A program made the position numbers and the translations under genes. A stretch of 64,000 nucleotides of DNA from a virus. The notes beneath the pieces were generated by a model. The model did not search any database. It was not told the origin of the DNA and worked only from the letters and a program-made list of their open reading frames with translations. The stretch is taken from IMG/VR virus record IMGVR_UViG_3300042874_000422, positions 1 through 64,000 of that record; one strand, given 5' to 3'. Shown here piece by piece: positions 37,938 through 64,000 of this stretch (positions within the stretch are counted from its first letter, which is position 1; each line of letters opens with the position of its first letter).

Positions 37938-37939
37938 CA

Positions 37940-38341: not shown

Positions 38342-38350
38342 GATGGGCGC

Positions 38351-39528: not shown

Positions 39529-39614
39529 CGGTCGGCACGCTAACACGCACGTCCGACAGCGGTTGGAGTAGACTCGGTGGGACGATCGCAGTTCGCGGTC
39601 GCTAGGGAGCACAG

Positions 39615-40166: not shown

Positions 40167-40180
40167 GCTAAGCTCGGCGC

Positions 40181-41404: not shown

Positions 41405-41405
41405 C

Positions 41406-44122: not shown

Positions 44123-44404
44123 CGCGACCCCGCCCGTGATCGTCGGGCCCGGTTGCTCTGGTGGGCTTGGTGGGCAAGCATCGGATCGCGCAGAGGCGGG
44201 ATCCGAGACTCGAATCGCTGACCTCGTATGGGGTAGAGGGTGGAGACCCACCAGACCCACCAGACCCACCGGGCTCGTGGCGACCCGGCTTGCATTGCTC
44301 GACACGCCACCTCGCCACGCCCGCTCGACCCGGCTGGATCGCGAGGACCCTCTCAGCGGACACGCGCATCAGCGCCGCAGAACGTCGGCTATCCCGTTAC
44401 TGCG

Positions 44405-46003: not shown

Positions 46004-46264
46004 ATGGCCAAAGCAAAGACCGCATCGTCCACGAAGTCCGCGAAGAAGAAGGCCGGCTGCCGTGGCGCGACGATTTCGTTCAAGACCAAGCGCGGCAAGA
46101 CGATCGAATTCAAGGGCCGCGCCGGCAAGGCGTGCGGTCCTCGTCGCAAGCCGACGCCGCCGCCCAAGCACTTCCGCACCGAGTTTGCCCGTCAGGCGAA
46201 AGCCTGCAAGGGCGGAACGCGCGGCGTGTTCCTGAAGTGCATGAAGCGCCTGCAGTACAGCTAG
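46004..46264 (+). CDS. Lys-rich basic protein
   Basis: TAGGAT-N7-ATG; 4 Cys. Confidence 0.7.
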   Translation: MAKAKTASSTKSAKKKAGCRGATISFKTKRGKTIEFKGRAGKACGPRRKPTPPPKHFRTEFARQAKACKGGTRGVFLKCMKRLQYS

Positions 46265-46271
46265 CCCTGCG

Positions 46272-46826
46272 ATGGCGCGCTGGCCGACCGCCCCGTACAC
46301 GACGCATCGCACCGGTTGCTATCGATGCCGTCGGATGACGTCGGCCGACGGCGGGTGCGGTGTGAAGGGCTACCCCTGCACGCACTGGGGTGTCGACACA
46401 TTCACGATCGACGGCAGCCGCGATGTGTGGGCGCCAGAGGCCGGCACCGTCGTCGCGGTCGCCAACGGCAGCTCGCCACCATTTTCAGGCTACGGCCCCG
46501 GTATCGTGCTGATGCTGGGCGCGAGCGGCGTCTACCATCTGCTTGCGCATCTCGACTACTCGACGATCGACGTTCGCGAAGGTCAGCAGCTCGCCGAAGG
46601 TGAGCCGATCGCGATGTTCAGCGAGGCATACGGCCACTGCCACTACGAGATTCGTCTGGCGCCGACGGGCCCGTCCGACGTGAACACAGTCGACCCGGTC
46701 GCGTGGCACGCGGGAGCCACCGGCATCACCACCGGCGAGATCGCGCTCATGTTCGTCGCGGGCGTCGTCGGGCTCGCGGGTGCGATCATGCTCGACCGCT
46801 GGCTTGCTGGCGAGCCCGTTGGTTGA
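46272..46826 (+). CDS. M23 peptidase with C-terminal TM
   Basis: HWGVD, AP..G.V, AHL, V..GQ, HCHYE. Confidence 0.85.
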   Translation: MARWPTAPYTTHRTGCYRCRRMTSADGGCGVKGYPCTHWGVDTFTIDGSRDVWAPEAGTVVAVANGSSPPFSGYGPGIVLMLGASGVYHLLAHLDYSTIDVREGQQLAEGEPIAMFSEAYGHCHYEIRLAPTGPSDVNTVDPVAWHAGATGITTGEIALMFVAGVVGLAGAIMLDRWLAGEPVG

Positions 46827-49952: not shown

Positions 49953-50717
49953 ATGTACCCCCGAGCCATCGGCTTACTCGCGACGAGGAACCGCCACGAA
50001 CTGGCGCACCAGGCCGCGCACGCCTTTTTGGACCAGCAGTACGCGGGCGATAAGACGTTGCTCATCTATGACGACAGCCAAACGCCATTCGCCCTCTGCG
50101 ACGAATTGCGACAGTTCGATGTCGTCGTGAAGAACATCGCGCCTACGAGGCTTCCGGTGAAACGGAACCAAATGATGCGATTGGCCATCGAGCGCGATCC
50201 CGAAGCGATCTACTTCGTCTGGGATGACGACGATTACATCAGCCCGCATCGCGTGCGGCGCCAGATCGAAGCGCTGCTCGCCAACCCAAACGCCGACGGT
50301 TGCATCCTGTGCCCGTACCTGACGTACGACGTCACTACGCGAGAGGTCGCGCAGCTCGGCAAGGCGAACATCACCGGGCTACGGCTTCGCGTGTTCGCCG
50401 ACGCCACGCTCGCGTTCCGACGACGATTGTGGGAACGGCTGCCGTGGGACGAGACCCGCGATCCGAACGCTTGTTGGCGCTGGATGCGTGAACCCGTCGA
50501 CCGCATCGTCGACATCCCAGGCGATGACGACTACATCGTGATCCGTCACCCGACGAATCACACGGTAGGCATGCTCCCCAAGACGTTTCACCCTCAGCTA
50601 CGCACGCTGGACGTCCGGCTCTCGGCCGACGACGTCGAGCGGCGAATCACGGCGCGTTGTACGTGTCCGCGTCGCCAGGGCCCGCCAGCGTGTGGGGATC
50701 CCAGAACAGCACGTTGA
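49953..50717 (+). CDS. glycosyltransferase family 2
   Basis: TRNR, Q.Y, LIYDD, KRN, VWDDDDY.SP.R. Confidence 0.8.
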   Translation: MYPRAIGLLATRNRHELAHQAAHAFLDQQYAGDKTLLIYDDSQTPFALCDELRQFDVVVKNIAPTRLPVKRNQMMRLAIERDPEAIYFVWDDDDYISPHRVRRQIEALLANPNADGCILCPYLTYDVTTREVAQLGKANITGLRLRVFADATLAFRRRLWERLPWDETRDPNACWRWMREPVDRIVDIPGDDDYIVIRHPTNHTVGMLPKTFHPQLRTLDVRLSADDVERRITARCTCPRRQGPPACGDPRTAR

Positions 50718-51015
50718 TCTCGGCGTCAGCGGCGTTGTCGTTGCTGAAGATGACGTGGATGGTGTTCGTCACGGCGCTGAGCGTGGGCTCGCCGTGCGTG
50801 ATGAACGTCCACGCCGAGATCGGCGACATCGGCATCACCTGGACGCGCGACGGGTCCGTGAAACCCGGCTCGGCGACCGAGTTAGCGACGAAGTTCTGAT
50901 TCACCTGACGAAGTCCGGTGTCGATGTCTAGGACGCCAGGGGCGCCGCCGTTGACGCCTGCCGGAATCGTGGCCCGGATACGGTTCCAAAGGAGATTGCC
51001 CGCGTTGGTGCTCAT
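50647..51015 (-). CDS. putative virion protein, MSTNAG family copy 3
   Basis: MSTNAGNLLWNR, NVLFWDPHT..GPG.A.TY. Confidence 0.75.
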   Translation of the reverse strand: MSTNAGNLLWNRIRATIPAGVNGGAPGVLDIDTGLRQVNQNFVANSVAEPGFTDPSRVQVMPMSPISAWTFITHGEPTLSAVTNTIHVIFSNDNAADAEINVLFWDPHTLAGPGDADTYNAP

Positions 51016-51137
51016 GACCCACACTCTACCCCCGCTTGCAACCGAGCTTCAACTCGTGCGATACGGGCCGGATCGTGGGGTGGACAGACGACGAGAGGAT
51101 CGAGCGAGCCCTGTGCGAGCTAGCCGACCACTGGTGG

Positions 51138-52127
51138 CTAATCTTCGGCGACGATCGTCCACGCGCCGCCGGCGGGGCCGACGTTGCCGTTGGTGATGTG
51201 GACCGAGAGATAGTCCGCACACGGGTTGGTGAGCTGAACGTTGACGGGAACGTCTGCGGGGGCGGCGAGCTGTTCGAACGCCTTGACCTCGAAGACAGGC
51301 GTGAACGAACCAACTGGATGCTCGTTGATGTTGCGAATGAGGCCAACGCGGTAATCAACGATCTGCGCCGGAATACCGTCGAAATTGTGCGAGAGGAGCG
51401 AGATGCCGATGCTCTTACGTCCGTAGATCGGAATCATCGCGAAGTAACCCGAGTTACCAGCGCCGAGCCCCCAAAGCCCCTCGCGCGCCATCGCAGCACG
51501 CTTGGTGGGTGGCGAGAACGCGGGCAGCTTGGCGTAGAACTGGAGATGTAAAAACGGCGCTTCTGTCGGCGTGAACGCACCCGTTACGCCGAACATGTTC
51601 GTGAACTGCTGACCTGCGTAGTAGCCGGTCGTCGTTCCGAACTGACCGCCGTGCCCATTCGCACCGACACCCTGGGCCAGATCGTTGTTGGACGGCTTGG
51701 GGCCCCACGGAAACACGTAGGCGGTCCCGGCCTGCATCGCGTCCCACCACGACTGGTTCGCGGTGCCCAGCGTGGGCTCCTTCTGCGTCGCTTGCGAGAA
51801 CAGCAGCGGCGCTTCGCGCGTGATGATGCGCGGGAGACTGACGACCAGCTCGGGGAGCATGACATCAGCCGGCGGGATGTTGAGCGTCTTCAGCCGATCC
51901 CACGTGTACCAGCAACGATCGATCGTGCTGCGCGGGCCGATCGCGACCGCCGCCACCGACGACGGCACTGGACGGCTGCCGGGCGGTGGCCACTGCAGGT
52001 TGATCTCGGGTGTGACAGCGCCCGGCGTATCTGACCGAACGCCCCAGTCCGTGAATTCAAGCTCGAAGACGTCGTTGCTACGCGCGAGCGCGTCTTCGAA
52101 CGGGAAGCTGTGCAGGGATTGAGGCAT
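51138..52127 (-). CDS. putative minor capsid/vertex protein
   Basis: Beta-rich C-terminus; downstream of the capsid candidates; GGAGAG SD. Confidence 0.55.
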   Translation of the reverse strand: MPQSLHSFPFEDALARSNDVFELEFTDWGVRSDTPGAVTPEINLQWPPPGSRPVPSSVAAVAIGPRSTIDRCWYTWDRLKTLNIPPADVMLPELVVSLPRIITREAPLLFSQATQKEPTLGTANQSWWDAMQAGTAYVFPWGPKPSNNDLAQGVGANGHGGQFGTTTGYYAGQQFTNMFGVTGAFTPTEAPFLHLQFYAKLPAFSPPTKRAAMAREGLWGLGAGNSGYFAMIPIYGRKSIGISLLSHNFDGIPAQIVDYRVGLIRNINEHPVGSFTPVFEVKAFEQLAAPADVPVNVQLTNPCADYLSVHITNGNVGPAGGAWTIVAED

Positions 52128-52139: not shown

Positions 52140-52463
52140 TTAAACGACGTCGCTGTTGGGCTTGACCGGGATTGCCTCGGACGCAGCCACCGAAATGATG
52201 ACGCCGGTGCCGATGCCGACGGCGTAGAGCGCCTGACCCGGCGCGAGGACGAACGTGTCCTCTTTGTTGATCGGAATGATCCAGGCGTTCGCGAACACAG
52301 GGATGTTCGACAGCGTGCCGACGTCATGCGCGAGCAGCGCATTGTTCGGTCCGAAGTTGCGAACGACCACACGAAGCGGCACGCCAGCGGCCTTCATCAA
52401 GGTCGCAGGATTCTGCGTGCCCTGAATCGGGAGAACGAGGCTGTTCAGCTGTGAAGGCTGCAT
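52140..52463 (-). CDS. small beta-sandwich (penton-like) protein
   Basis: GGAGG SD; VVVRN.G, FVLAPGQALYA. Confidence 0.55.
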   Translation of the reverse strand: MQPSQLNSLVLPIQGTQNPATLMKAAGVPLRVVVRNFGPNNALLAHDVGTLSNIPVFANAWIIPINKEDTFVLAPGQALYAVGIGTGVIISVAASEAIPVKPNSDVV

Positions 52464-52483
52464 GTCGGACCCTCCGAGTAGAA

Positions 52484-53014
52484 CTAGCGCGTGTTCGACG
52501 GCGGTGCGACTTGCAGGAGAAACCCTTGAAAGCCCACTTCGATGCGGAGCGAGACGAGCGGATCGACGGGAACCGCCGTCGGGATCTGCGCGCCATCCCA
52601 CGTCGGCAGCGCGAGCGTGTCAACCACGACCTGGAAGCCCTCGGAGCGGATCAGGTAGTACGGCTCGGCCCACTCCCACGTCCGCTCGCTGCTGCCCTTG
52701 GTGAGCAGGTTTATCAGCGTCGGATTCTTCGTCATGATGACGTTCTTGCCGAAGTCGTTGATGCGCAGGCGCACCAATTCAGCAAGCATGTCTTGCGACG
52801 GCTGGTTCGGCAGCACGCCGTTCGCGTCGTCGAGCGCGGTGATGCGCGGGATCATGCGGTGGCACTCGAAGGGCATGTCGATGTTGTTGGTGAACACCGC
52901 GTCGGGGAACTGCGTGCCCGACTGACTGCCCTGCATGATGATTTCACCTGGCATCTCGTACGGGATGCGCATGGTGATTTCGCGATTGGCCCACGTGCTC
53001 GGAAGACGACCCAT
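52484..53014 (-). CDS. candidate small single jelly-roll major capsid protein (176 aa)
   Basis: AAGGAG SD; alternating beta pattern PFECHRMI, VRLRIND, PYYL, FQVVV, IEVGFQG. Confidence 0.5.
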   Translation of the reverse strand: MGRLPSTWANREITMRIPYEMPGEIIMQGSQSGTQFPDAVFTNNIDMPFECHRMIPRITALDDANGVLPNQPSQDMLAELVRLRINDFGKNVIMTKNPTLINLLTKGSSERTWEWAEPYYLIRSEGFQVVVDTLALPTWDGAQIPTAVPVDPLVSLRIEVGFQGFLLQVAPPSNTR

Positions 53015-53087
53015 GTCAGCAGCTCCTTGTCGACGTTTTAACTTGATGTCGACGTCCAAACCCTATCACGGTGCCGACCCGTTGGTC

Positions 53088-53399
53088 ATGTTCAAGGCTC
53101 CGACCATCGGTCCGCACATGTACCTGGTCGTGGCGACGATCTCGACGTGGCCCGAGGCGTTCGACCGTAAGACCGCCGACAAGGCGCTCGCGGCGTTCGT
53201 CGAACCACTCGATATGGACACGATACTGTCGACGTTCGACACGAACGTTCAGCTCGAAGAGCGAGCCCTCAACTGGGCCGACGTCATCGGTTTCCTCGCT
53301 CGCATCACCCAGCGAACGAATGACCTGGTACCGACGAACGTCGGCGTCGCGTTCTGGGCGCACTACCTACTTTGGGAAAACCAACAAGGAACGAATTGA
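53088..53399 (+). CDS. hypothetical protein
   Basis: ORF 1 bp upstream of the next gene. Confidence 0.5.
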   Translation: MFKAPTIGPHMYLVVATISTWPEAFDRKTADKALAAFVEPLDMDTILSTFDTNVQLEERALNWADVIGFLARITQRTNDLVPTNVGVAFWAHYLLWENQQGTN

Positions 53400-53400
53400 G

Positions 53401-53919
53401 ATGAAGATTTACGTCGCAGCGGCATCCAGCGAGATCGAGCGCGCAGAGAAGCGCATGGCGCAGCTTAAGGAGATCGGCTTCGACGTCGTCTCGACGTGGC
53501 CAGAGGTCATCCGCAAGGTCGGCTCCGCGAACCCAATAGAGGCGTCGCGCGAGGACCGCGCGACGTGGGCTGCCGAGGATCTATCCCAAGTCGCGACGGC
53601 GGAAGTGCTCTGGTACCTGATCCCCGAGAGCGCGCCGACGGACGGCGCTAACGTCGAATTCGGCTACGCCTTGATGCTCGGCGTGATGTCGCAGGAAGCC
53701 CGCGCCGCCGGGATCAACGCCCCCGTCTATCGCTTGCTCACGTCGGGCAAAGAGCGGTCGATCTTCACGGCGCTCGCGATCCATTACAAGACCGACGAAG
53801 AGGCGCTCACGGCGCTCAGGGTTCAGCTTGGCTTCCACCAGATGCTGGCCGGAAAAACGAAAAGCCCCGGAGCTTCCTCCGGGGCCGGACTCGACGGGCC
53901 GTCGAGCGAAGGTGGTTAG
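53401..53919 (+). CDS. nucleoside 2-deoxyribosyltransferase-like protein
   Basis: MKIYVAA, V.STW, DL..V, G..VEFGYA. Confidence 0.7.
   Translation: MKIYVAAASSEIERAEKRMAQLKEIGFDVVSTWPEVIRKVGSANPIEASREDRATWAAEDLSQVATAEVLWYLIPESAPTDGANVEFGYALMLGVMSQEARAAGINAPVYRLLTSGKERSIFTALAIHYKTDEEALTALRVQLGFHQMLAGKTKSPGASSGAGLDGPSSEGG
53853..53885 (-). terminator. intrinsic terminator (minus strand)
   Basis: GCCCCGGAG-GAAG-CTCCGGGGC then TTTTCGTTTTT. Confidence 0.7.
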
Positions 53920-54225
53920 GGCGTCCAGCGAGTGCGATCTCGGCACGGCCCAAACCCGGGCGGCGTGCCCAGCGCCTCACCAATCTCCCAGCCGTAACGC
54001 TGGACCCGACGAGCAACCAATTCGTAGCGGACGTTAGCCAGCTCAGCCCATTCGCTGATGGTCCGCGATTGGCCGTTCAGCTCGTACCGGCGCGTAGTGC
54101 GTTGGTTCCGGTTCTGCTCGGTGGGTGTCGCCCACCTGATGTTGCCGGGCTCGTAATGCCCGTCATTATCGATGCGATCCAACGAGAACAATCGCTCCGA
54201 TCCGTGGTCACGCGGCGGCCTCGAT
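53916..54225 (-). pseudogene. C-terminal half of an HNH homing endonuclease
   Basis: SLDRIDNDGHYEPGNIRWAT..EQNRN, NG...TISEWAE. Confidence 0.85.
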
Positions 54226-54247
54226 GCGAACGAGGGCCGCCGCAAAC

Positions 54248-54463
54248 TTATCGAGGGTTGCGGCGACGACCGCCGCCACCGGCTGTGTCGAGCGCATCTA
54301 CATCTGCGACGTCGACGGTGGTCCTCCCGTACACGCGGCGCGTGTGTAGGTCACCGCGAGCAATGGCTCGCCAAATGGTCGACGCGCTGACACCACGTCG
54401 AGCGGCAGCGGCTTCGATCGTGACCTGCCGGGCCAGATCGACGATGCGAGAGAGTGATTTCAT
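54248..54463 (-). CDS. small excisionase-like HTH protein
   Basis: TIEAAAARRGVSASTIWRAIARGDL. Confidence 0.7.
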   Translation of the reverse strand: MKSLSRIVDLARQVTIEAAAARRGVSASTIWRAIARGDLHTRRVYGRTTVDVADVDALDTAGGGGRRRNPR

Positions 54464-54536
54464 GTGAGTCATGCGATGCTTTCTGTCGCATGCCTCGCCG
54501 TGGTCCATGGCGAGCATTACTAGTGACACCGATGTC

Positions 54537-54779
54537 ATGCCTGGCCCTCGTCGAACGAGACCCAAGAAAGCGCCTCGCACCGCCAAGAAGCTGGCGAAGC
54601 GCAAGCGCAAGCGCACGACCGCGCGGAAGCCGCGTGACGTGGAGGTCACCCGCCGTTCACTAGCGATCGCGTCCTGTGACAATGCGACCCGCGCTCGATG
54701 CGCGGGAGGGACACGGCGTGCCCGCCTTGGCAGGATGTGTCCACCCGACACGTGTGGGCGCACACTGCGTGCATTGTGA
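54537..54779 (+). CDS. small basic Cys-containing protein
   Basis: MPGPRRTRPKKAPRTAKKLAKRKRKR... Confidence 0.5.
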   Translation: MPGPRRTRPKKAPRTAKKLAKRKRKRTTARKPRDVEVTRRSLAIASCDNATRARCAGGTRRARLGRMCPPDTCGRTLRAL

Positions 54780-54963
54780 TGCCGCGACCGCCGTAGTCCG
54801 GGTACGGCTCGCTGCGCTTGTTGAAGCACCGCGTCTTGATGCTCGACCAGGCACGGTAGAGGGCGTTCACGGTTGTGCCGGTGGCGCGCGTGCCTCTGGC
54901 CGCACCGTGCTTGGCGCTAGCGATATTCCGCGCGACGAGATCTGGTCGAGGTCCAACACCCAT
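54770..54963 (-). pseudogene. N-terminal half of the same HNH endonuclease
   Basis: KHG..LYRAWSSIKTRCFN....YPDYGGRGITM. Confidence 0.85.
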
Positions 54964-54994
54964 GACCGACCGTCGCACGCAGGTCAGACAAACG

Positions 54995-55020
54995 AAAAGC
55001 CGCCCACGTTGGGCGGCTTT
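54995..55020 (-). terminator. intrinsic terminator after the capsid candidate
   Basis: AAAGCCGCCC-AACGT-GGGCGGCTTTT. Confidence 0.85.
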
Positions 55021-55059
55021 GGTTGCCGAAGCAGCTACGCCTAAATAGGCGTAATTGCT

Positions 55060-55770
55060 TTAGACAACGCTCCTCTTGATGAGGCCGTAGAGGTACGTCT
55101 TGACGTCCGCGAACGTCAGAGCCGCACCGTTGTCAGCAGCCGCCTGGCTGATGACGATCGGCGCCTCGGGCTGGAACGACATCTTGAAGCCGAGGTTCTC
55201 GCGGAGGTCGATCGGCAGGACCATCGCGTTGCGATCACGGGGCGACGGGACGCCGTTCTGCGCCAGCTCGAATGAGCTGGTCGTGGCGAACACGTAGTAG
55301 CCGTGACCCTGCGGGTAGTCCTGCATCACGCCGTACGTGTAGACCTTCCCGTTGTACGAGAATTCCAGGTACGTCACGCGATCGAACTGGAACAGCGTGT
55401 TGAGGATCGGCGGGGCCGAGAGCGCGCCCGAGCCGTCCGCGAGGACAGGCTGCGTCGGGTTCGCCGTCGGGCCGCGCATGACGCGGACCATCTTCACGCC
55501 GATGCCGTACACGTACATCTCCCACGACTGCGGCAGACCGGAGTCGCCGTTACGGGGGACGTTGGTGTCGACGCGCGTCGAGGCGCGCGTGCCGCCCGGG
55601 ATGGGCTGCGAGCGGCCAGCCGTGAACGCCTCGACCGGCGAGGTCTGGGTGTTCGTGATCTGGACGGTGCTGTAGAGCTTGTCGTCGATCCAGTCGCTGA
55701 TCGCGACCGTCTGCCCGTTGGGCAGGGTGAGGGTCGTGGTTCCGGGTGCTACGCCAACAGTTCCAGCCAT
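55060..55770 (-). CDS. candidate large single jelly-roll major capsid protein (236 aa)
   Basis: AGGAG SD, own terminator, strong codon bias, all-beta pattern (LYST, DTN, GLP, MYVYGIGV, LEFSYNGK, P.G.G, NGVP, LPI.L, YLYG..R.V). Confidence 0.6.
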   Translation of the reverse strand: MAGTVGVAPGTTTLTLPNGQTVAISDWIDDKLYSTVQITNTQTSPVEAFTAGRSQPIPGGTRASTRVDTNVPRNGDSGLPQSWEMYVYGIGVKMVRVMRGPTANPTQPVLADGSGALSAPPILNTLFQFDRVTYLEFSYNGKVYTYGVMQDYPQGHGYYVFATTSSFELAQNGVPSPRDRNAMVLPIDLRENLGFKMSFQPEAPIVISQAAADNGAALTFADVKTYLYGLIKRSVV

Positions 55771-55779
55771 GTCACGTTC

Positions 55780-55975
55780 TCCTGAGAAGAGGGTCTAGGA
55801 AGCCCGAACGTCGGGGGACGTCCCCCTGGGTTCGGTAGGCCGCGAAACACGCGGCTTGGCCGGCTTAAACGGGGTCGAACCGTCTCCTCCCTCGGGCCTT
55901 GAACCTTCGGGTGCTCTCACCGGAGAGCTTGTCAGCCGTCGACACGGGTTGCCCCGTGCGAGCGAGTTGTCAGGG
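55780..55975 (-). ncRNA. structured intergenic leader of the capsid gene
   Basis: Stems CACGGG-GCAA-CCCGTG, GCTCTC/GAGAGC, ACGG-TTCGACC-CCGT, GCCGCG/CGCGGC, GGGGG-ACGT-CCCCC. Confidence 0.5.
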
Positions 55976-55977
55976 AA

Positions 55978-56670
55978 CTAGCGGCTGCCGCCGAGCAAGG
56001 TCGCGCCGTACGCAGCCGACAGACCGTGGATCTGCGGACCGCCGAGGAGCGAGACCTGGCTCGACCGCGAGCTGGGCTGGCCGAGCAAGCTCACGGGAGC
56101 CGAGCGACCGAGTGACGTACCGGCGAAGCCGGGACCCGCAACGCCCGGGATCGTGCCGACCGACTGCGGCTGTGGCGCGATCGACGGGATGCCAAGGCCA
56201 TTCAGGTAATTCATCTTCGGGATGCCGAGACCGTTCAGGTACGTCCCATCAGCCTGACGACGCATACCGAGGCCGTTGAGCGCGTTCACCTGCGCGATAC
56301 CGAGGCCGGCCATCGCGCCCGGCTCCTTCTCGACGGCGGTCTGCACGGCGGCACTCGCCACCGCGACCGGGAACAGGAGCTTCTCGATGTACGAGAGGCC
56401 CGCTGCGAGGAACGAACCAACGACGGAGCCGAGCGCCATCGGGCGCGTCGAGCGCATCGCTGCGAGGAGACCGGAGGTGCCGAGGCCCGCGAGCAGGCCG
56501 TACAGCTCGCGGTTCTTCGCGTTCTTGCCGCCCTGGACGTGAGCGAGCGCCATCGACGTCACGCCTGCGACGCCACCGCCGATGAGCGTGCCGTAAAAGC
56601 TCAGCGGACCAGCGCTGAGACCGAGGCCGAGCAGGTTGACTTCTCCGAGTAGCTTCGCGCGACGGGCCAT
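55978..56670 (-). CDS. multi-TM protein with repeated [LM]xGLG motifs
   Basis: AAGGAG SD; 3 hydrophobic segments; MAGLG, LNGLG x3, LLG x4. Confidence 0.8.
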   Translation of the reverse strand: MARRAKLLGEVNLLGLGLSAGPLSFYGTLIGGGVAGVTSMALAHVQGGKNAKNRELYGLLAGLGTSGLLAAMRSTRPMALGSVVGSFLAAGLSYIEKLLFPVAVASAAVQTAVEKEPGAMAGLGIAQVNALNGLGMRRQADGTYLNGLGIPKMNYLNGLGIPSIAPQPQSVGTIPGVAGPGFAGTSLGRSAPVSLLGQPSSRSSQVSLLGGPQIHGLSAAYGATLLGGSR

Positions 56671-56684
56671 TGACGTTCTCCTTG

Positions 56685-56867
56685 TTATCGAGTCGGGTTG
56701 GAGCAGCTACCGGTGAACACCAGCCCGCTGCGATGCTTCTTGCTCTTGGGGACTCTGCAGATCTCGACGCCGCGCTTCGTTCGCTTGTTGAACACGCAGC
56801 GACAGTCGGTGCGCTGAACCGGACGTTCCCCGACGCCGGCCAACGTCATGACGTGATTCTTCGCCAC
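56685..56867 (-). CDS. small basic Cys-rich protein (LAGVG leader)
   Basis: TAGTG overlap; 4 Cys. Confidence 0.6.
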   Translation of the reverse strand: MAKNHVMTLAGVGERPVQRTDCRCVFNKRTKRGVEICRVPKSKKHRSGLVFTGSCSNPTR

Positions 56868-57352
56868 TAACCGTTCCACCAACGGTTGGTCCACTGGTGC
56901 CAGCTCGTCTCGGCCTGCGAGCGAGCGTAAGCGTTCGGCAGACCACCACCCTTGAGGAGATGGGCGACCATCTGCTCCTTGGCGATCATCTGCGGCGCGA
57001 TCTCCTCGCCGACCTGCGGGTAGCCCGCGCCCCAGCCGGGCTGGATCATGCCGCCGGCGCCGATCGCGTGCATCCGCTCCATCGGAAGCGCCTGGAGGAC
57101 CTGCTTCTTCGCCTGCTTCTTCGCGCGCCACGCGGCGAATTGCAGACGAATGCGATCGATGACGCCGACACCGCGAAGACCGCCGAGACCGTTGGTCTGG
57201 AGATCCATCGGGTACTGCGTGAACGACGCCGCCACCGACTGGACGTCGGCATTCGGGTCGTAGCCGATCGCCGGCTGGAGGACGCTCGTGCGGTAGACCC
57301 TATCGGGCCTGACGTAGTGCGAGGTGCCCCCATGCCGCGTGATGATCTGCAT
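56867..57352 (-). CDS. putative virion protein (NGLGGLRGVG)
   Basis: TACACA-N6-ATG; first gene of the capsid operon. Confidence 0.7.
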   Translation of the reverse strand: MQIITRHGGTSHYVRPDRVYRTSVLQPAIGYDPNADVQSVAASFTQYPMDLQTNGLGGLRGVGVIDRIRLQFAAWRAKKQAKKQVLQALPMERMHAIGAGGMIQPGWGAGYPQVGEEIAPQMIAKEQMVAHLLKGGGLPNAYARSQAETSWHQWTNRWWNG

Positions 57353-57514
57353 GGTTCATGTGTACCGACGTAGACGTAACTAAGCAATATTGTTAAAGAA
57401 CTTAGAACAGCAGATCACATGAGGCTTCATAACACCCTGAAAGATCGTTCCAAGCGCCCGCGCTTGATCAATTCTTTGATCTGTCGTTCGGAAGGTGCGA
57501 CAGAACGTAGACAC

Positions 57515-58054
57515 GTGCGAACCGTGTATTTCCTGTCGAACAGCGATCTCTCGCGCGTGAAGATCGGCAAAGCGACACGAACTTCGACACGGGTTCGCGC
57601 CGTTCAGGCTGGGTCTGCCGAGCAACTCTTACTCGTGGCCGAGGTCGACGGCTACACACACGTCGAACGCTGGTTTCACGATCGCTTCGCGACACGCCGA
57701 ATCCACAACGAGTGGTTCGTAGTCGACGACGAGCTTGGAAAAACAATCGCAGAGATCCAGCGCGCAGGGCGCGGCGCGAGCAGACATCTTTGCCCTGATG
57801 CTTTTGCGAAAGATCTGCCGCCACAGATCAACGCGCACACGAAACTGACACCCGAGATCGTCGAAGAAGCACGCTGTCGCTACGATCGCGGAGAATCGAT
57901 CACGGCGCTGATTCACCGCTTCTCGGCGATCAAGCCGCTCGATCTCAGTCGGGCGGTGTTCGGGCTCACCTGGCAACAACTGGCGCCGACGACGCGAAAA
58001 CCACCTGACGATCTGCGTCGGTTGCTTCAGGGCAAGTATCGTAGAGTCTCGTAG
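57515..58054 (+). CDS. GIY-YIG (T5orf172-like) nuclease with C-terminal HTH
   Basis: VYF, VKIG, R...Q.GS, E..FH.RF, EWF; start uncertain. Confidence 0.8.
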   Translation: MRTVYFLSNSDLSRVKIGKATRTSTRVRAVQAGSAEQLLLVAEVDGYTHVERWFHDRFATRRIHNEWFVVDDELGKTIAEIQRAGRGASRHLCPDAFAKDLPPQINAHTKLTPEIVEEARCRYDRGESITALIHRFSAIKPLDLSRAVFGLTWQQLAPTTRKPPDDLRRLLQGKYRRVS

Positions 58055-58056
58055 CC

Positions 58057-58593
58057 ATGATGATCCTCAATCCGACGACCGCTGCTGCCGTGGTGCTGCA
58101 CGCGAGCGATGGGGTGTGGATCATGTTCCTGCAGTCGACGGCGCCCTGTGATCCGTACGGCCCAATCATGATCGAGAGCACGATGCGGGAACGGCTCGCG
58201 GCTCGTTTGACAGATCTCAACGAGGACAACGCCTACGGTCTCCGATTGATCGGTCTGATGCCGGTGAACGACCCCAAGAATGTCGACACCGTCTTGGAGG
58301 CGTTCGACGCCTACCGGCTGCACGATGCGTGGTTCGCACCGAACGCCGAGCTTTTGGCGTTCATCGCCGAGAACGCCCAAGACGCGATCTCGTTGCTCCT
58401 GGCGCAAACGCGGCCCGGCGCGCTCCCTGACGCACCGATCATGATCAACGAAATGGCTGACATCCTCGGGGTCTCGGTACCGACGGTGCGGCGCATGATC
58501 AAGCTGGAGGAGATCCCGTTCCTGAAGTTCGGCCGAGTCTACCGTTTCATCGCCGCCGATGTTCTCGCGAGCCTAGAACGACGCCAGCGGTAA
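58057..58593 (+). CDS. degenerate T5orf172-like domain fused to an excisionase-type HTH
   Basis: F...RL..AWF; EMADILGVSVPTVRRMI..EIP..KFGR.YRF. Confidence 0.7.
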   Translation: MMILNPTTAAAVVLHASDGVWIMFLQSTAPCDPYGPIMIESTMRERLAARLTDLNEDNAYGLRLIGLMPVNDPKNVDTVLEAFDAYRLHDAWFAPNAELLAFIAENAQDAISLLLAQTRPGALPDAPIMINEMADILGVSVPTVRRMIKLEEIPFLKFGRVYRFIAADVLASLERRQR

Positions 58594-58619
58594 CCGCACT
58601 GCCGCGCTGCCGGATCCTA

Positions 58620-58892
58620 CTACTTCAGAATCGCCGCGAGCCCGCCGAGAACGCCGAGACCGAGCGCGGCCACGGTGCCGACGACAATCCACTTGCGATT
58701 CTTCCACCACCATGAATCGAACATCGCGTTAGCGGCGTCGATCGGGGCGTCCATTGTACCGCCGAGGTAAGGGCCGACCGGCTGCGCCGTCGACTGCGTC
58801 ATGCCCGGCGGGAACCGCATGTCGGTGACCTGCGGATTCATCGCGGGATCCATGTTGAACTGCCACGCTGGGATGAACCCGAGGTTGTTCAT
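58620..58892 (-). CDS. tail-anchored membrane protein
   Basis: TAAGCT-N6-ATG; MNNLGFIPA; C-terminal TM. Confidence 0.7.
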   Translation of the reverse strand: MNNLGFIPAWQFNMDPAMNPQVTDMRFPPGMTQSTAQPVGPYLGGTMDAPIDAANAMFDSWWWKNRKWIVVGTVAALGLGVLGGLAAILK

Positions 58893-58906
58893 GGCGTCAG
58901 CTTACA

Positions 58907-59221
58907 TCACTTCGGTTTCGCGAAGCCGGGCTTGCGAGCGATGGCCACGATCGGCGTGAACACCGGGAAGAGCCCACCCATGAGGAACCACCACACACCC
59001 CAGCCAATGCTGCCGTGGTTGCGCTTGATCCCGTGGTAACCACTCGCGCCTGCTGACGCGAGCGCAAGGAGCCCCCAGATCGTGTTCTTTGTGATCTTCG
59101 ACGAGTCGACGATCGGCGGTGCGTCGGTGACGACAGGTTCAGCACTGAGGTGACCGAGCCCGTTCAGCCCGTACAGCCCATGTACACCGGTCATCCCGCG
59201 CAACGCTTGCAGATTCAACAT
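58907..59221 (-). CDS. membrane protein with an xxG-repeat leader
   Basis: LRGMTGVHGLYGLNGLG; YHG.KRN.GS.GW. Confidence 0.75.
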   Translation of the reverse strand: MLNLQALRGMTGVHGLYGLNGLGHLSAEPVVTDAPPIVDSSKITKNTIWGLLALASAGASGYHGIKRNHGSIGWGVWWFLMGGLFPVFTPIVAIARKPGFAKPK

Positions 59222-59239
59222 GCGTCGATGATGCCGCTG

Positions 59240-59932
59240 CTACGCGGGGAAGTCGAGAGCCTCGGCGTAAGGGACCTCGACCGCGTACTTGTTGCGGCCG
59301 GGTAGCGTCGTGTCGAGCGCGACCCACTTCGACGGGCCGTTCTTCGGCAACCCTGCGAGCGGGAAGATGTGCGACCAGTCGTCGCTCTTGCTCTCTTTCA
59401 TCACGCGAAGGCGCGGCGTGATGCCATTGAGCGCGAGCAAGGTCGCGATCAGCACGCTCTGGTCGTCGCAATCACCGCCGCCGAATTCCAGCGTGCGCCG
59501 CGCGCTCTGATAAAGGTCGATACCCTCGACGTCGCCGTTCGGGAACTTGATCGGCGCGACATCGCCCGTGTACCGGACGTTGTCCTTGACGAAGTTGTAC
59601 ACCGCACGCGCCTCGCACTCACCATCGCGCTCGGGGCACTGCGACGTGATCTTGAGTGCGAGCTTGCGCATCTCCGGATCTTGCACCGACTTGTGGACGA
59701 GTTTCTGGATCGACGCGAGGCGCTCTTCGATCGGCATTCCTTCGCTGGCGCGAAGCGTCGTTCGCATGTTGCCGTCGGAGTAGCCGTCGATCGCCGGCGC
59801 CTCTTCGTACCGCTTCGACATGAAACGTACACGTCCGAGGCTCGCCGTCTTGCGCTGACGGTAAATGAAGTACCCGCCAAGGAGAGCGACACCGAGACCA
59901 ACGAGGCCCCATTGCTTGCGTGACAGCGCCAT
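59240..59932 (-). CDS. membrane-anchored transglutaminase-like cysteine protease
   Basis: VYNFVK.NVRY..D, GDCDD, SHIF, W.ALDTT (Cys-His-Asp); N-terminal TM. Confidence 0.85.
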   Translation of the reverse strand: MALSRKQWGLVGLGVALLGGYFIYRQRKTASLGRVRFMSKRYEEAPAIDGYSDGNMRTTLRASEGMPIEERLASIQKLVHKSVQDPEMRKLALKITSQCPERDGECEARAVYNFVKDNVRYTGDVAPIKFPNGDVEGIDLYQSARRTLEFGGGDCDDQSVLIATLLALNGITPRLRVMKESKSDDWSHIFPLAGLPKNGPSKWVALDTTLPGRNKYAVEVPYAEALDFPA

Positions 59933-59971
59933 TGGTCCTGACGGTATCACGCTCTATGTTAGGCTCGCGAT

Positions 59972-60370
59972 ATGCTCCAGTTCTCCCCTCTTGGCTCCGT
60001 GTCCGATGACTACGTGGATTGCTTGGCCGAGGGTGGAGATGCGGACGTCTGCCGAGAGCTGCATCCGCCGACACCTGGCGCGCCCACGACCTCGCCGATC
60101 ATGACGGCGGAAGAACAGCAGATCGCTTCGAGCCATGCGTGCGACGTCTGCGACCCGAACACGCAGTGGTGTGACGGCACGACGTGTATCCCGTTTACCG
60201 TCGAAGAACAGGCTAAGTGGGCTGCTGTCGGAAAGCCGCCCGAGCAGATCGTCGTTCGGGCGAGCCCGACCCGATCGCTCATCCCCGGTGTTTCCAACAC
60301 GACGCTCGCGATCGGCGCGGCCTTGCTCGGGCTGGGTGTCATCGCCTACAAGCGCACGCGCCGAGCGTGA
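59972..60370 (+). CDS. Cys-rich tail-anchored membrane protein
   Basis: TAGGCT-N6-ATG; MLQFSPLG leader; TM + KRTRR. Confidence 0.75.
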   Translation: MLQFSPLGSVSDDYVDCLAEGGDADVCRELHPPTPGAPTTSPIMTAEEQQIASSHACDVCDPNTQWCDGTTCIPFTVEEQAKWAAVGKPPEQIVVRASPTRSLIPGVSNTTLAIGAALLGLGVIAYKRTRRA

Positions 60371-60401
60371 TAGCCTACGTTCCAAGGAAGGTGAAGAAGA
60401 C

Positions 60402-60764
60402 ATGATTACGATGAACGGACTCGGAGCAGGCGGCGATAACTGCGACCCAGCAACGTCGTGGTACCAGTCCGACCCGAACATGGCGTACTACGGGAGCTGC
60501 ATCCCGTTCGCCGGCCTTCCCGGCTCAAGCTCGACCGGCCCCGCGCCGACGACGCAGACGACGGCAGCGTCTCCGTGGTGGGGCTCGCTCCTCACCAGCC
60601 TCACGTCGGGCGTGGTCAAGGGCATCGTCGGCAACGACGGTCAGCCCGCGACTCCGACGATGCCGCCGCCCAGGATGCCGCCCACGCCGTGGTACGCAAC
60701 GCCGACCGGCATGATCGGCATCGGTGTCGGTGCGGTCGCGCTGATCTTCCTGCTGAGGAAGTAA
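60402..60764 (+). CDS. tail-anchored membrane protein (MNGLG leader)
   Basis: TM + RK. Confidence 0.7.
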   Translation: MITMNGLGAGGDNCDPATSWYQSDPNMAYYGSCIPFAGLPGSSSTGPAPTTQTTAASPWWGSLLTSLTSGVVKGIVGNDGQPATPTMPPPRMPPTPWYATPTGMIGIGVGAVALIFLLRK

Positions 60765-61018
60765 TGCTGGCGGTCTCACCAGCAAAGCAACCGCTCGCCG
60801 GGATTCTCGATAACTTCATCGACTCAGTCACCGGTAGAGCCGTCTCCAGCGCGACCACCGCCGCACAACCGCTGCTCGACGACGTCGAGCGACGAGTCAA
60901 GGCGCTCATTCTGCCTGTGGTCTTCTTCACCGCCGGTAGCTTCTTGATCGGGCTACTCACGTACCGCGAAGTGGCCAAGCGATCGAAACCGGTCGCGGGA
61001 CTCCGAGGGCGCCGATGA
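60764..61018 (+). CDS. membrane protein (LAG; VAGLRGRR tail)
   Basis: TAATG coupling; TM. Confidence 0.7.
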   Translation: MLAVSPAKQPLAGILDNFIDSVTGRAVSSATTAAQPLLDDVERRVKALILPVVFFTAGSFLIGLLTYREVAKRSKPVAGLRGRR

Positions 61019-61314
61019 TTCTCCTGAACCCGAACGTTGGCGTTGCGCCAGGCACCACGACCATGCAGCTCGGCGAAGCGTGCGCGCCGGATCCGATCGA
61101 GCCCGAGTCGCCGTTCACGCAGATGGTCACGACGTACGCGCCGTCGTCGACGACACTCGACACCGGCGTGGAGCTGTGGATCCCGTACCAAGACACCGTT
61201 CGCTTACGTGGGCTCGGTGAGATTGCGCCGCCGCGCTGGGGGCTCGTGCTGCTCGCCGGACTCACCGCGTTCGGCATCGTGCTCGGATTGCGACGTTGGC
61301 GCGCCAAGCGTTGA
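61015..61314 (+). CDS. tail-anchored membrane protein (LRGLG before the TM)
   Basis: ATGA overlap; VGVAPGTTT shared with the capsid candidate. Confidence 0.75.
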   Translation: MILLNPNVGVAPGTTTMQLGEACAPDPIEPESPFTQMVTTYAPSSTTLDTGVELWIPYQDTVRLRGLGEIAPPRWGLVLLAGLTAFGIVLGLRRWRAKR

Positions 61315-61332
61315 GCGTGATACCGTAGCCGC

Positions 61333-61776
61333 ATGCTCGGTTTCATTCCCGCGCCGATGGGCCAGAAGGTCCCCGGGCAGTACCCGAATCAGATCCAGTA
61401 CAGCTACGGCGGCGACGGTCACTACCTCTGTCCCCCGGATCCGCGGTTCAACCAGCACGGCGAGATCGGGATGTACTACGACACGCCGCTCGGTGGCCCA
61501 CAGATCCCGACGGACGCAGAGCTGGCGACCGTCTACGGCCGGACACCGGTCGCGAGCGCGTGGATCACCGCCAAGGAAGGCTACTTCCCGTCGCCGTGGC
61601 GACCGCCGGGCGGCTGGAACCCCGCTGGCGCATGGGGCCCGCAGCCGAGCTTGGGCGCTGCGCCCATGATCTTCTACAAGTTCGGCATGTCGCCGCTACT
61701 GTGGGGGCTCGTCGCGGGCGCGGGCGGGCTCCTCTGGTGGATGACGCACAAGACCAAGCCGCGTCGGAGGCGTTAG
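61333..61776 (+). CDS. Pro/Gly/Tyr-rich tail-anchored membrane protein
   Basis: TACCGT-N6-ATG; SLG before the TM; RRRR tail. Confidence 0.75.
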   Translation: MLGFIPAPMGQKVPGQYPNQIQYSYGGDGHYLCPPDPRFNQHGEIGMYYDTPLGGPQIPTDAELATVYGRTPVASAWITAKEGYFPSPWRPPGGWNPAGAWGPQPSLGAAPMIFYKFGMSPLLWGLVAGAGGLLWWMTHKTKPRRRR

Positions 61777-62016
61777 ATGCTGACGCTCGGGCTCGGTGAT
61801 CCCGTCGATCTGACGTTGCCAGAAACGGCGACGGCGACCGAGACACAGGCTGTGATCGCCGCGCTCAACGCGCACAACGATCGTGTTTTCAAGGTCACGC
61901 TGATCTCGACGATCGTTGTCGGGCTCGCAGCGGCGCTCAACACGCTGCGCACGTTCCGCACCCTTCAGCGCGAGGAAGCGCGCGAGATGGCTCTCTTAAA
62001 AAGGCTCAAGAAATAA
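61777..62016 (+). CDS. membrane protein (MLTLGLG leader)
   Basis: Single TM. Confidence 0.7.
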   Translation: MLTLGLGDPVDLTLPETATATETQAVIAALNAHNDRVFKVTLISTIVVGLAAALNTLRTFRTLQREEAREMALLKRLKK

Positions 62017-62330
62017 TGGCGAAGCAAGCGGCTCTCCCGACGTACCGCACTGCCGCTCGCGTTCTTGAGGGCGAAAAGGGTTCGGGCATTCGCCTCGCCG
62101 GCTGGACAGTCGCCCGCACGCTCATGATCGCACCGCCGATGATGATCGTCGGTGTTCCGATCCGGCAGGCGTTCACAGGCGCGGCGCTCTCGTCAGCGCT
62201 GATCAGTCTGTTCACGGTGATCCGCCTCTTCGATGCACGGCAGACCGGCATGGCCGGGCTCGACTATGGCAAGCAGATGGCCGGGCTCACTCGTCGACGG
62301 CCGGTTCGCCGGCGCTCTTACGCAAGGTAA
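62016..62330 (+). CDS. membrane protein (MAGL x2 + Arg-rich tail)
   Basis: TAATG coupling. Confidence 0.7.
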   Translation: MAKQAALPTYRTAARVLEGEKGSGIRLAGWTVARTLMIAPPMMIVGVPIRQAFTGAALSSALISLFTVIRLFDARQTGMAGLDYGKQMAGLTRRRPVRRRSYAR

Positions 62331-62574
62331 GAATCAGCGGGATCGACGGCCAGATCACGCCGAACACGATCGACGAGCCCGTGATCAGGAGCAGCTCTTG
62401 GATGTCGAGCGGTTCGTCGATCACGTGACGCCGGGCCGCTTCGTAGAGCAGCACGACACTGGTCATCGTCACAAGGATCGCGACGGCGACGTACGTTGGC
62501 CCGACGAATACCGCGACAGCGCCCGAGATGAACAGCGCGAAGACAATCTGACCAAGTGCGGTGAGGAACTGCAC
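62287..62574 (-). CDS. three-TM membrane protein
   Basis: Three hydrophobic segments. Confidence 0.55.
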   Translation of the reverse strand: MQFLTALGQIVFALFISGAVAVFVGPTYVAVAILVTMTSVVLLYEAARRHVIDEPLDIQELLLITGSSIVFGVIWPSIPLILTLRKSAGEPAVDE

Positions 62575-62614: not shown

Positions 62615-64000
62615 TCACGCTCGCGCGCGCCCGTTCGCGGGCTTGGCGGGCTTGACAGGCGGCTGAACCTCGACTGCGTTGTCGTCACCGGTCTCGTCAC
62701 CTTCGTCTTCCTCGTCCTCATCTTCGTCGTCATCGGTGTTGCCCGACAGCTCGTTGAGAACGATCTGTGCGGCCTCGTCGCGGAACTGCTGCGAAGCATC
62801 CGGCAGGAGGACGTCCATGAAGTCGGCGACACGACCCTGACCGAGCAGCTCGGTCATCGCGAGGATTTGGATCTGCTGCTGCATCACGATCATCGCGGCC
62901 TGCAAGATCACACTCGCCGCCTGTTCTGGCTCGACACCGTCGACGGTGCTGTCCTTCTTGAGACGCGGCGGCGACATCTTCAGCGACTCGTGGAAATGCG
63001 CGACACCGACACGAAGCTCTTCGACCTTCGGCAGAATCGGACCGAACCATTCAAGATCGGTGCGCCCATGGATACGCCTGACCTGTGCGCCCTCGACGAC
63101 AGCGGGAACCGGGCCCGTCGTCCATTGTGCGTTCGGATCCTTGCCGTTGCCGTTCGAGGCTCGCACCGACGACGTCTGCGAGACTTGCGTGTCACCGGCG
63201 GGGCCCGCGCTCGCGGGAACCTGTGGGCCGTTCAGACCGCCAGCTTGCTGACGCGCCTGCATCTGCGCCTGCACCGTCATCGCCTGCGCCTGTGCCTGCA
63301 TCGCGGCGGCGTTCGCCTGCGCGAGTGACGCCTGCGATTGCTGTGTCGCTACGGCTTCCTTGGTCTTGCCGCCGAGATACCGCTCGGCCATCGACGACGC
63401 GCGCTCCAGTCCCTTCTCGATCAGCTGGATGGTCTCGCTACCACCGCCGCTGTTGAGCTGCAGGATTTGCTCGACGGCGTTGCGCTGCATTTCGAGGATC
63501 GACTGGTACGTCGACGTGATCGAGCGCGTCGCCTGATCGAGCCCGTTGCTTGACTCCTTGGCCATCGCCATCACGTCGCGCGGGTTCATCATGTACGACT
63601 GCATCTGCGCCATCTGTGCGGTCTGGTTGCGGGCTTGCTCCTTCACCGCTTCGACCTGCTGGCGTGCGTTCTCCTGTAGGAACATCAGCATCGGGTCCGG
63701 GCCCTTGTTCGCTGACGCTGCGGCGAGCGCAGCGGTCTGTGCCGCAGCTTGCTGTTGTGCCACGACCGACGCCTGCATCGCTTCCATCTGGCGACGGCTC
63801 TCCTCGGCCTGACGCTGGATCATCTCCTTCATCTCGCGCTCGCGGCGTTCAGCTTCGCGCTCGCGGCGCTCATCGGCGGCTTGCTGCGCGAGCACGCGGT
63901 TCTGTTCCTTCAACGCCTCGATCGCGGGGTCGGTCGTCGGGCGCTGCGTCGCCGCCGTGGCGAGGGCCGCGATCATCTGCTCCAGCTTCGAGAACTTCTC
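62615..64000 (-). CDS. large Gln/Ala/Met-rich coiled-coil protein (5' end outside the window)
   Basis: Frame open to the window edge; acidic C-terminus. Confidence 0.75.
   Translation of the reverse strand, partial: EKFSKLEQMIAALATAATQRPTTDPAIEALKEQNRVLAQQAADERREREAERREREMKEMIQRQAEESRRQMEAMQASVVAQQQAAAQTAALAAASANKGPDPMLMFLQENARQQVEAVKEQARNQTAQMAQMQSYMMNPRDVMAMAKESSNGLDQATRSITSTYQSILEMQRNAVEQILQLNSGGGSETIQLIEKGLERASSMAERYLGGKTKEAVATQQSQASLAQANAAAMQAQAQAMTVQAQMQARQQAGGLNGPQVPASAGPAGDTQVSQTSSVRASNGNGKDPNAQWTTGPVPAVVEGAQVRRIHGRTDLEWFGPILPKVEELRVGVAHFHESLKMSPPRLKKDSTVDGVEPEQAASVILQAAMIVMQQQIQILAMTELLGQGRVADFMDVLLPDASQQFRDEAAQIVLNELSGNTDDDEDEDEEDEGDETGDDNAVEVQPPVKPAKPANGRARA

Follow-up and report, generated by a model that had tools for sequence, protein, structure and literature searches.

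Tailless membrane-containing phages with jelly-roll capsid proteins are known only with genomes of approximately 10–44 kb, and their architecture has been thought to be limited in size. Salisaeta phage SSIP-1 is described as a phage that contains a membrane and has a PRD1-adenovirus-type architecture and two types of major capsid protein (MCP) (review, PMC6356626). The genomes of viruses from the order Halopanivirales are 16–31 kb long (PMC12642351 and PMC12643093). SPV1 from the family Portogloboviridae has nine open reading frames (ORFs) with assigned functions, none of which is an ATPase (PMC8459092). Here, we describe a 64,000-nucleotide-long stretch of DNA (positions 1 to 64,000 of IMG/VR record IMGVR_UViG_3300042874_000422), referred to as the window, and the contig from which it is derived. 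The block of genes located at 50.6–64.7 kb of the contig is most likely the virion module of a complete uncultured bacterial virus without the head, portal, terminase, and tail genes of ordinary phages. It is probable that the virus is tailless and that its capsid is formed by jelly-roll proteins. The presence of a membrane and the packaging of DNA without a motor are proposed with lower confidence.

Genome and lineage

The window is part of a 77,539-base pair (bp) contig with a GC content of 64%. Because the ends of the contig share a 127-bp terminal overlap, and the IMG/VR class of the record is direct terminal repeats (DTR), the genome, which is approximately 77.4 kb long, is complete and either circular or circularly permuted. 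An overlap of 127 bp is expected when an assembler using k = 127 assembles a circular path. Gene calling relied on the third-position GC content, and no tRNA genes are present in the window. The genome is a member of a widespread uncultured lineage with genomes of 77–221 kb from soil, sediment, and cave habitats, for which no description was found in the literature. Relatives with genomes of 121, 138 (DTR), 196, and 221 kb were used for comparison, and the genomes of 77, 138, and 221 kb are referred to as the three complete genomes. The core common to these three includes candidate virion proteins of 236, 176, and 107 residues together with the replication and recombination proteins PolA, a putative SF3 helicase, SNF2, an exonuclease, and Sak4. 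It furthermore contains a transglutaminase-like protein, a tail-anchored 104-residue protein, a family similar to gp48 of SSIP-1, an anchored M23 peptidase, an 86-residue protein composed of 30% lysine and arginine, thioredoxin, and the N-terminus of a 699-residue coiled-coil protein with three adjoining genes.

The host is judged to be bacterial, because the genome contains Shine-Dalgarno sites, encodes the M23 peptidase, and contains a region at positions 35008–35907 that matches endolysin families of PHROG. Relatives have been binned with metagenome-assembled genomes (MAGs) of Actinomycetes, Polyangiales, Gemmatimonadota, and Planctomycetota, and the bins disagree with each other. CP070815, a MAG from Gemmatimonadota that is listed as a "chromosome", contains two halves of a related virus, one with replication genes and the other with structural genes, positioned 1.4 Mb apart in blocks at 2.229–2.266 Mb and 3.674–3.719 Mb. 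The surrounding regions hold runs of N, which are indicative of a gapped scaffold. This arrangement does not show the integration of a provirus in CP070815 and seems to reflect the scaffolding of viral contigs into the bin. One sequencing run, which comes from a cave metagenome and probably represents the source sample, contains the entire stretch, and the search of sequencing runs listed no RNA run containing it.

Predicted jelly-roll capsid proteins

The candidate major capsid protein is 236 residues long (55060–55770, − strand). The GC content of the third codon positions of its gene is 0.90, and AGGAG is positioned 9 nucleotides upstream of the ATG start codon. The stop codon is directly followed by an intrinsic-terminator-like hairpin (54996–55020, −) with an 11-pair GC-rich stem, including seven GC pairs, and a run of T. 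A prediction made previously from the sequence of the window (the original prediction) had noted strong ribosome-binding sites of the 236- and 176-residue genes and the separate terminator of the former; these features are present, and the genes named in the prediction are located on the − strand and have a high third-position GC content. The untranslated leader on the 5′ side of the 236-residue gene has a length of 207 nucleotides (55771–55977, −), which is long for a compact genome. The predicted folding of the leader is only slightly better than that of shuffled sequences (z = −1.6), and an Rfam scan of the leader identified no family.

The 236-residue protein has no match in Pfam, PHROG, or cultured phages. 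Its metagenomic homologues number more than 472 and form 131 clusters at 50% identity. The identity of 58–80% in 15 of the 15 related loci is the highest in the module, and, judging from these alignments, the gene is the most conserved of the lineage. The extreme conservation together with the expression signals fit a capsid protein. The structure of the protein predicted by AlphaFold2 from an alignment of 53 sequences is all-beta, with a pLDDT of 83. The matches of the model identified by Foldseek are weak, and nearly all of them are viral jelly-roll capsid proteins, the best being VP4 of SPV1. SPV1 VP4 is also among the weak jelly-roll matches from the Foldseek search of BFVD, and a search of Atlas structure clusters provided clusters of PRD1 P2/P3 at scores of 0.76–0.78, which serve as leads only.

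The candidate second capsid protein has 176 residues (52484–53014, −) and at least 175 homologues. Its gene contains AAGGAG before the ATG, and the choice of the start codon is backed by relatives, which begin with MGRLP. The model of the protein, with a pLDDT of 88.7, is a jelly roll with highest-scoring matches to vaccinia D13 (7.4), PBCV-1 (7.3), and PRD1 P3 (7.1), followed by SPV1 (7.0), HCIV-1 (6.9), HHIV-2 (6.8), and SH1 (6.6). The capsid jelly rolls of SPV1, HHIV-2, SH1, and HCIV-1, chains of P23-77, and the second barrels of double jelly-roll (DJR) capsid proteins rank high for both models. As had been proposed in the original prediction, both proteins are modelled as jelly rolls; their best matches are the jelly rolls that stand upright in the capsids of viruses containing a membrane. 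A profile–profile comparison of the 236- and 176-residue families detected no sequence relation between them. The prediction of a complex of the two proteins resulted in a score of 0.00; it was calculated without controls and counts neither for nor against binding.

Sequence links to SSIP-1

The transglutaminase-like protein (59240–59950, −) matches one of 50,697 phage records, in which the similar protein is gp34 of SSIP-1 (tblastn, E = 3e-9). Pairwise comparison of the two proteins gives an E-value of 5e-16; gp34 also contains a Transglut_core domain and is annotated as "structural protein". The second link is provided by a family of beta proteins with lengths of 133 and 183 residues (37940–38341 and 39615–40166). 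Profiles of the family, built without SSIP-1 sequences and compared to the 57 proteins of SSIP-1, detect the structural protein gp48 with E-values of 1.9e-7 and 6e-6, and gp44 with an E-value of approximately 1e-3. By these comparisons, sequence links from the lineage to cultured viruses are limited to SSIP-1.

The proteins gp45 and gp46 of SSIP-1 are a paralogous pair and the presumed capsid pair of the phage, and a search for gp46 in IMG/VR identified SSIP-1 itself only. The ATPase gp40 from the SSIP-1 virion (AAA_25/KaiC-like) has no homologue in the genome according to phmmer. The Sak4-like protein was considered as a counterpart of gp40 and rejected, because the two do not align. New in this study are a further complete member of the lineage and an independent test of the link to SSIP-1.

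Searches for tailed-phage genes and for a packaging motor

Every real ORF encoding at least 400 residues was scanned against Pfam and PHROGs, and approximately 50 proteins in all were compared to one or both of the libraries. The scans detected no terminase, portal, capsid, or tail genes across the whole 77,539-bp contig, which extends to the entire genome what had been proposed for the 64-kb window, and none of the approximately 50 proteins has a PHROG head, tail, or portal match at the level of sequence, which a very divergent HK97 fold may escape. In six-frame searches, Terminase_6N (PF03237), TerL_ATPase (PF03354), Phage_portal (PF04860), and Phage_capsid (PF05065) were detected in none of the five genomes (the 77-kb genome and the relatives of 121, 138, 196, and 221 kb), and control genomes scored. 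By every test run here, the genome appears not to be that of a tailed phage. Two outcomes named beforehand as contradicting the original prediction, namely non-jelly-roll folds of both proteins and an HK97 capsid, terminase, portal, or tail module elsewhere on the contig, did not occur.

Six-frame searches of the same five genomes for Pox_A32 (PF04665) provided no match. The search for FtsK_SpoIIIE (PF01580) resulted in one sub-threshold match (E = 0.012), which maps to the SF3-like helicase, at its Walker A loop. P-loop proteins of only three classes are present in any frame: SNF2, the Sak4-like protein, and a 534-residue protein. The hallmark packaging ATPase of Halopanivirales and double jelly-roll viruses was therefore not found, and the contig-wide search for an FtsK/HerA enzyme that accompanied the original prediction yielded no A32/P9-like ATPase.

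The 534-residue P-loop protein (contig 71837–73441, −) is among the most conserved of the lineage, with an identity of 48–76%. It is best read as a replicative SF3 helicase of the D5/VapE type, because of its sequence motifs, the weak matches of its relatives to RNA_helicase (16 of 30) and VapE (4 of 30), and the position of its gene in the replication block beside those of SNF2, the exonuclease, and Sak4. We also weighed this protein as a possible packaging ATPase but dismissed it, since the succession of Walker A, Walker B, motif C (ASKN), and arginines fits this type of helicase. In several relatives, the protein contains intein or homing-endonuclease domains (PF14890, PF05203, PF05204, and PF14528).

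Alternative interpretations

Several observations weigh against the interpretation of the genome as that of a tailless virus with a jelly-roll capsid. The matches from Foldseek and VIA include jelly-roll cement proteins of the tailed phages Pam1 and KHP30/40. Comparison of the profiles of the 236- and 176-residue families to all Protein Data Bank (PDB) sequences retrieved no solved capsid protein. A profile of distant members of the 236-residue family ranks gp45 and gp46 of SSIP-1 first, but with borderline E-values of 0.008 and 0.034, and the result of hhalign was negative. The rIIA/rIIB-like, Sak4, GP88, and PolA proteins are of kinds common in tailed phages. No ATPase that could drive the packaging step was found. 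The upright orientation of the jelly rolls, their position in the shell, and the membrane are all inferred, the lineage being known here from its genes.

These observations may be explained if the genome belonged to a tailed phage (Caudoviricetes) with terminase, portal, HK97, and tail genes beyond the reach of hidden Markov models, in which case the jelly rolls would be cement or decoration proteins, or domains of fibers or baseplates. In agreement with this, a tail fiber of phage 7-7-1 and a baseplate protein are found alongside the cement proteins among the fold matches, the neighboring Atlas clusters are auto-labelled Uroviricota, and an SNF2 gene, similarly to those of rIIA/rIIB-like proteins, Sak4, and GP88, is typical of tailed phages. 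However, terminases need a P-loop, and the only P-loop proteins in any frame are SNF2, Sak4, and the SF3-like helicase. Furthermore, the scan of all ORFs of at least 400 residues provided no hallmark match, and the four hallmark families were found in none of the five genomes, two of which are DTR-complete. Membrane proteins with tail anchors predominate in the structural region, and the homologies of two virion proteins point to a tailless phage, SSIP-1. We therefore consider a tailed phage to be unlikely.

Even less probable is that the virus is a true member of Halopanivirales, with two upright single jelly-roll capsid proteins and an A32-like ATPase that was missed in our searches. The lengths of 236 and 176 residues resemble those of the large and small capsid chains of SH1 and HHIV-2 (225–229 and 167–175 residues), and the chains of HHIV-2, SH1, HCIV-1, and P23-77 rank high for both models. 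By contrast, the Pox_A32 and FtsK_SpoIIIE searches identified no ATPase in the five genomes, and there is no sequence similarity to the solved proteins of the order, even when profiles are used, which detect no chain of P23-77, SH1, or HHIV-2. In addition, the fold of the 236-residue protein is matched better by SPV1, and the genomes of the lineage are 2.5–13 times larger than the 16–31 kb given for the order (PMC12642351 and PMC12643093). Because neither the ATPase nor sequence kinship was found, the genome does not appear to be a member of Halopanivirales. The assignment to a Halopanivirales-type virus in the original prediction is thus not upheld: the sequence links are to SSIP-1 only, and the best fold match of the 236-residue protein is SPV1 VP4.

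The least likely alternative, a plasmid or similar non-viral mobile element in which the jelly-roll and membrane proteins have a role at the cell surface or in a compartment, would fit the circular map, the integrase, the many membrane proteins, the missing packaging machinery, and the occurrence of jelly rolls in many non-viral proteins, but it is opposed by the lack of a relaxase and of conjugation ATPases among the three classes of P-loop proteins, the endolysin module, the phage-type replication and recombination genes, the homology to two annotated structural proteins of the SSIP-1 virion, and the capsid-like conservation and expression signals of the 236-residue gene.

Membrane proteins, wall enzymes, and basic proteins

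A hydropathy scan of the genome identified 32 proteins with a hydrophobic stretch, approximately 25 of which are plausible membrane proteins. Fifteen proteins have C-terminal tail anchors, most of them followed by lysine/arginine tails, which bears out the abundance of small transmembrane proteins with basic tails described previously. Two tail-anchored proteins of 90 and 104 residues are encoded at 58620–59221 (−), and the latter is retained in all three complete genomes. A run of small single-pass membrane proteins, most of which have lysine/arginine tails and several of which are conserved in relatives, extends over positions 59972–62574. Its members are encoded on the + strand at 59972–60370, 61015–61314, 61333–61776, 61777–62016, and 62016–62330, and on the − strand at 62287–62574. 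The transglutaminase-like protein encoded directly before this run is a putative cysteine enzyme with an N-terminal membrane anchor (Pfam Transglut_core, E = 7.5e-7) and is present in 15 of 15 loci. On the other side of the run is the gene of the 699-residue coiled-coil protein (62615–64000, continuing to contig position 64714, −), which is rich in glutamine, alanine, glutamate, and arginine and has an acidic tail. The protein has no Pfam or PHROG match, and its N-terminal part is kept in all three complete genomes.

Wall hydrolases anchored in a membrane had also been proposed, and this applies to one protein: the M23 peptidase with a C-terminal anchor (46272–46826, +; Peptidase_M23, E = 3.5e-9), which is encoded in all three complete genomes. 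The evidence for the others is less clear, since the protein at contig 70316–70888 has a weak SLT match, and that at 45092–45754 is lysozyme-like by eye, with no Pfam or PHROG match. Upstream of the M23 gene is that of the 86-residue protein (46004–46264, +), which is a candidate DNA-condensing protein according to its composition and is present in all three complete genomes. Small proteins with 23–33% lysine and arginine, each of which contains two or four cysteines, are encoded at 5967–8274, 12201–12413, 43141–43353, and 46004–46264; judging from their sequences, they are candidates for condensing DNA.

Beta-rich proteins of 189, 133, 183, 407, and 232 residues, which are conserved in relatives, are encoded at 37368–42104 (+). 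They are probably further virion or spike proteins. The 407-residue protein, encoded in the region 40181–42104 (+), contains four tandem repeats of approximately 33 residues, followed by a C-terminal domain (SANDxAAGTGAR...) common to the neighboring 232-residue protein. This repeat protein may be a spike or fiber. Elsewhere in the genome, a 175-residue protein (10380–10907, −) combines an N-terminal membrane anchor with an EncFtn-like domain (E = 7.8e-10), which is an unusual pairing for a virus.

Proposed organization of the virion

In the proposed virion, the 236-residue protein would be highly expressed and make up most of an icosahedral shell in which the jelly rolls stand upright, the 176-residue protein being a second shell component. 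The 107-residue protein, its membrane-anchored paralogue, and the small paralogous beta proteins may be positioned at or under the vertices. The shell would enclose a lipid membrane populated by the tail-anchored proteins. Two enzymes, the M23 peptidase with its anchor and the transglutaminase-like protein, may be virion components with a role in entry or maturation, and the 699-residue coiled-coil protein could be a scaffold or size ruler. Because no motor was found and several small proteins rich in lysine and arginine are encoded, one of them in the core, the DNA is probably condensed by these proteins and enclosed during assembly, as in the archaeal virus SPV1 (PMC8459092), rather than pumped in.

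It is possible, although we propose this only tentatively, that the genomes represent a realm-level lineage of large (77–221 kb) bacterial viruses with a membrane-lined shell of single jelly-roll proteins, in which circular DNA is condensed by protamine-like proteins without an NTP-driven motor, and membrane and shell form around it, similarly to the 20-kb archaeal virus SPV1. Such viruses would be the largest known to do so, and they would form a bacterial bridge between SSIP-1, Portogloboviridae, and double jelly-roll viruses.

Genes neighboring the capsid protein candidates

The gene order 161-230-236-176-107-329, given by the lengths of the encoded proteins, is conserved in 12–15 loci. The 236- and 176-residue genes are separated by a variable spacer (53060–55059) that contains fragments of an HNH-type homing endonuclease and a second terminator (53886–53863, −). 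According to motifs in their translations, the ORF fragments at 54646–54978 and 53916–54245 (−) look like the N-terminal and C-terminal parts of a single broken endonuclease; they have no Pfam match. The spacer looks like an insertion hot spot, because relatives differ in the distance between the two genes, which ranges from 0.7 to 2.9 kb and reaches 14 kb in the 221-kb genome.

The 107-residue small beta protein (52140–52463, −), a possible vertex (penton) protein whose gene has GGAGG before the ATG, is conserved and syntenic in 12 loci. Its profile also matches the C-terminal domain of the membrane-anchored protein encoded at 37368–37937, which is a paralogue, and comparison of the profile to PDB sequences provided nothing relevant. 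The last gene of the 236-176-107-329 run encodes a conserved protein of 329 residues (51138–52127, −) with 25–30% identity in seven loci. The gene has a Shine-Dalgarno site; searches of Pfam, PHROG, and PDB provided no match for the protein, and its Atlas model is unusable (pLDDT 0.38). Next to the run is the gene of a 125-residue protein (50647–51024, −) with homologues in the 221-kb relative. It is one of three paralogues of 125–128 residues (33450–33836, 34355–34735, and 50647–51024, −) that share the N-terminus MSTNAG(N/Q)LLWNR. One of the three genes is adjacent to the capsid block, and a 2OG-Fe(II) oxygenase gene lies between the other two.

Directly upstream of the 236-residue gene in 12 loci is that of a 230-residue membrane protein (55978–56670, −), which is rich in glycine and alanine, contains repeated LNGLG, and has 40–48% identity. 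It is preceded by the gene of a conserved 161-residue protein (56867–57352, −), in which the N-terminal 60 residues are conserved. Pfam and PHROG scans identified no family match for either protein. A 178-residue protein encoded at 58057–58593 (+) has a C-terminal HTH_17 DNA-binding domain (Pfam, E = 1.7e-11) and is conserved in 12 loci.

Replication genes and other large proteins

The proteins annotated by Pfam or PHROG include PolA with a uracil-DNA-glycosylase (UDG) domain (1009 residues), rIIA-like (693), rIIB-like (438), GP88 (417), and SNF2 (520) proteins. ORFs of at least 400 residues that were left without an assignment encode proteins of 534, 758, 699, 425, and 407 residues. PolA (1437–4466, +), which verifies that the virus has its own polymerase as predicted, is a family A DNA polymerase fused to an N-terminal domain from the uracil-DNA-glycosylase superfamily. 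A second, free-standing 3′–5′ exonuclease is encoded at 43496–44305. The rIIA-like protein, which has a weak HATPase_c match, and the rIIB-like protein are encoded by a gene pair (22970–26286, −) that is kept in the 138-kb relative. The genome also encodes an integrase.

Comparison with known jelly-roll viruses

If the proposed interpretation is correct, the tailless jelly-roll architecture scales to jumbo size in bacteria, in viruses with genomes of 77–221 kb and their own replication machinery. It would also raise the question of how such viruses, with neither a terminase nor an A32-like ATPase, enclose 80–220 kb of DNA. Marker-based virus classifiers label such contigs as tailed phages, and the whole group would thus be misfiled.

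The Tectiliviricetes/double jelly-roll phages (PRD1, PM2, and FLiP) differ from the virus described here, in which the two jelly rolls are encoded by separate genes without mutual similarity, whose distance reaches 14 kb in one relative. Furthermore, the lineage lacks a detected FtsK/HerA ATPase, and its genomes are 5–20 times larger. The virion of PRD1 carries a transglycosylase, which the membrane-anchored lytic enzymes of the lineage recall.

With the Halopanivirales (Singelaviria: SH1, HHIV-2, HCIV-1, SNJ1, Thermus P23-77, and IN93), the lineage shares two separate small capsid-like jelly-roll proteins and, as predicted from its genes, a tailless build and an internal membrane. By contrast, the A32-like ATPase, the gene order ATPase-MCP-MCP, and the sequence homology characteristic of the order are not present.

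In SPV1 (VP4/VP10, PDB 6OJ0), small single jelly-roll proteins form a shell over a lipid layer, an organization that is predicted here from genes. The likeness extends to numerous membrane and subcapsomer proteins and circular double-stranded DNA, and would include a condensed nucleoprotein core. The lack of an assigned ATPase in SPV1 parallels the present genome, in which no motor was found and small proteins rich in lysine and arginine are encoded. However, SPV1 infects an archaeal hyperthermophile, has a 20-kb genome without replication genes, and shares no sequence similarity with the genome described here. Judging from the models, SPV1 resembles the present virus in fold and design, which does not demonstrate kinship.

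The tailless phage SSIP-1 differs from the present virus in its 44-kb genome, compared to which the genome described here is 1.8 times larger, and those of relatives up to five times. Only two or three detected proteins are in common, and the present genome has its own PolA, putative SF3 helicase, SNF2, and recombination module. Nevertheless, the genome maps of both viruses are circular, both have bacteria as hosts, which is judged from sequence here, and both encode many small membrane proteins. If the interpretation holds, the orphan phage SSIP-1 gains a large family.

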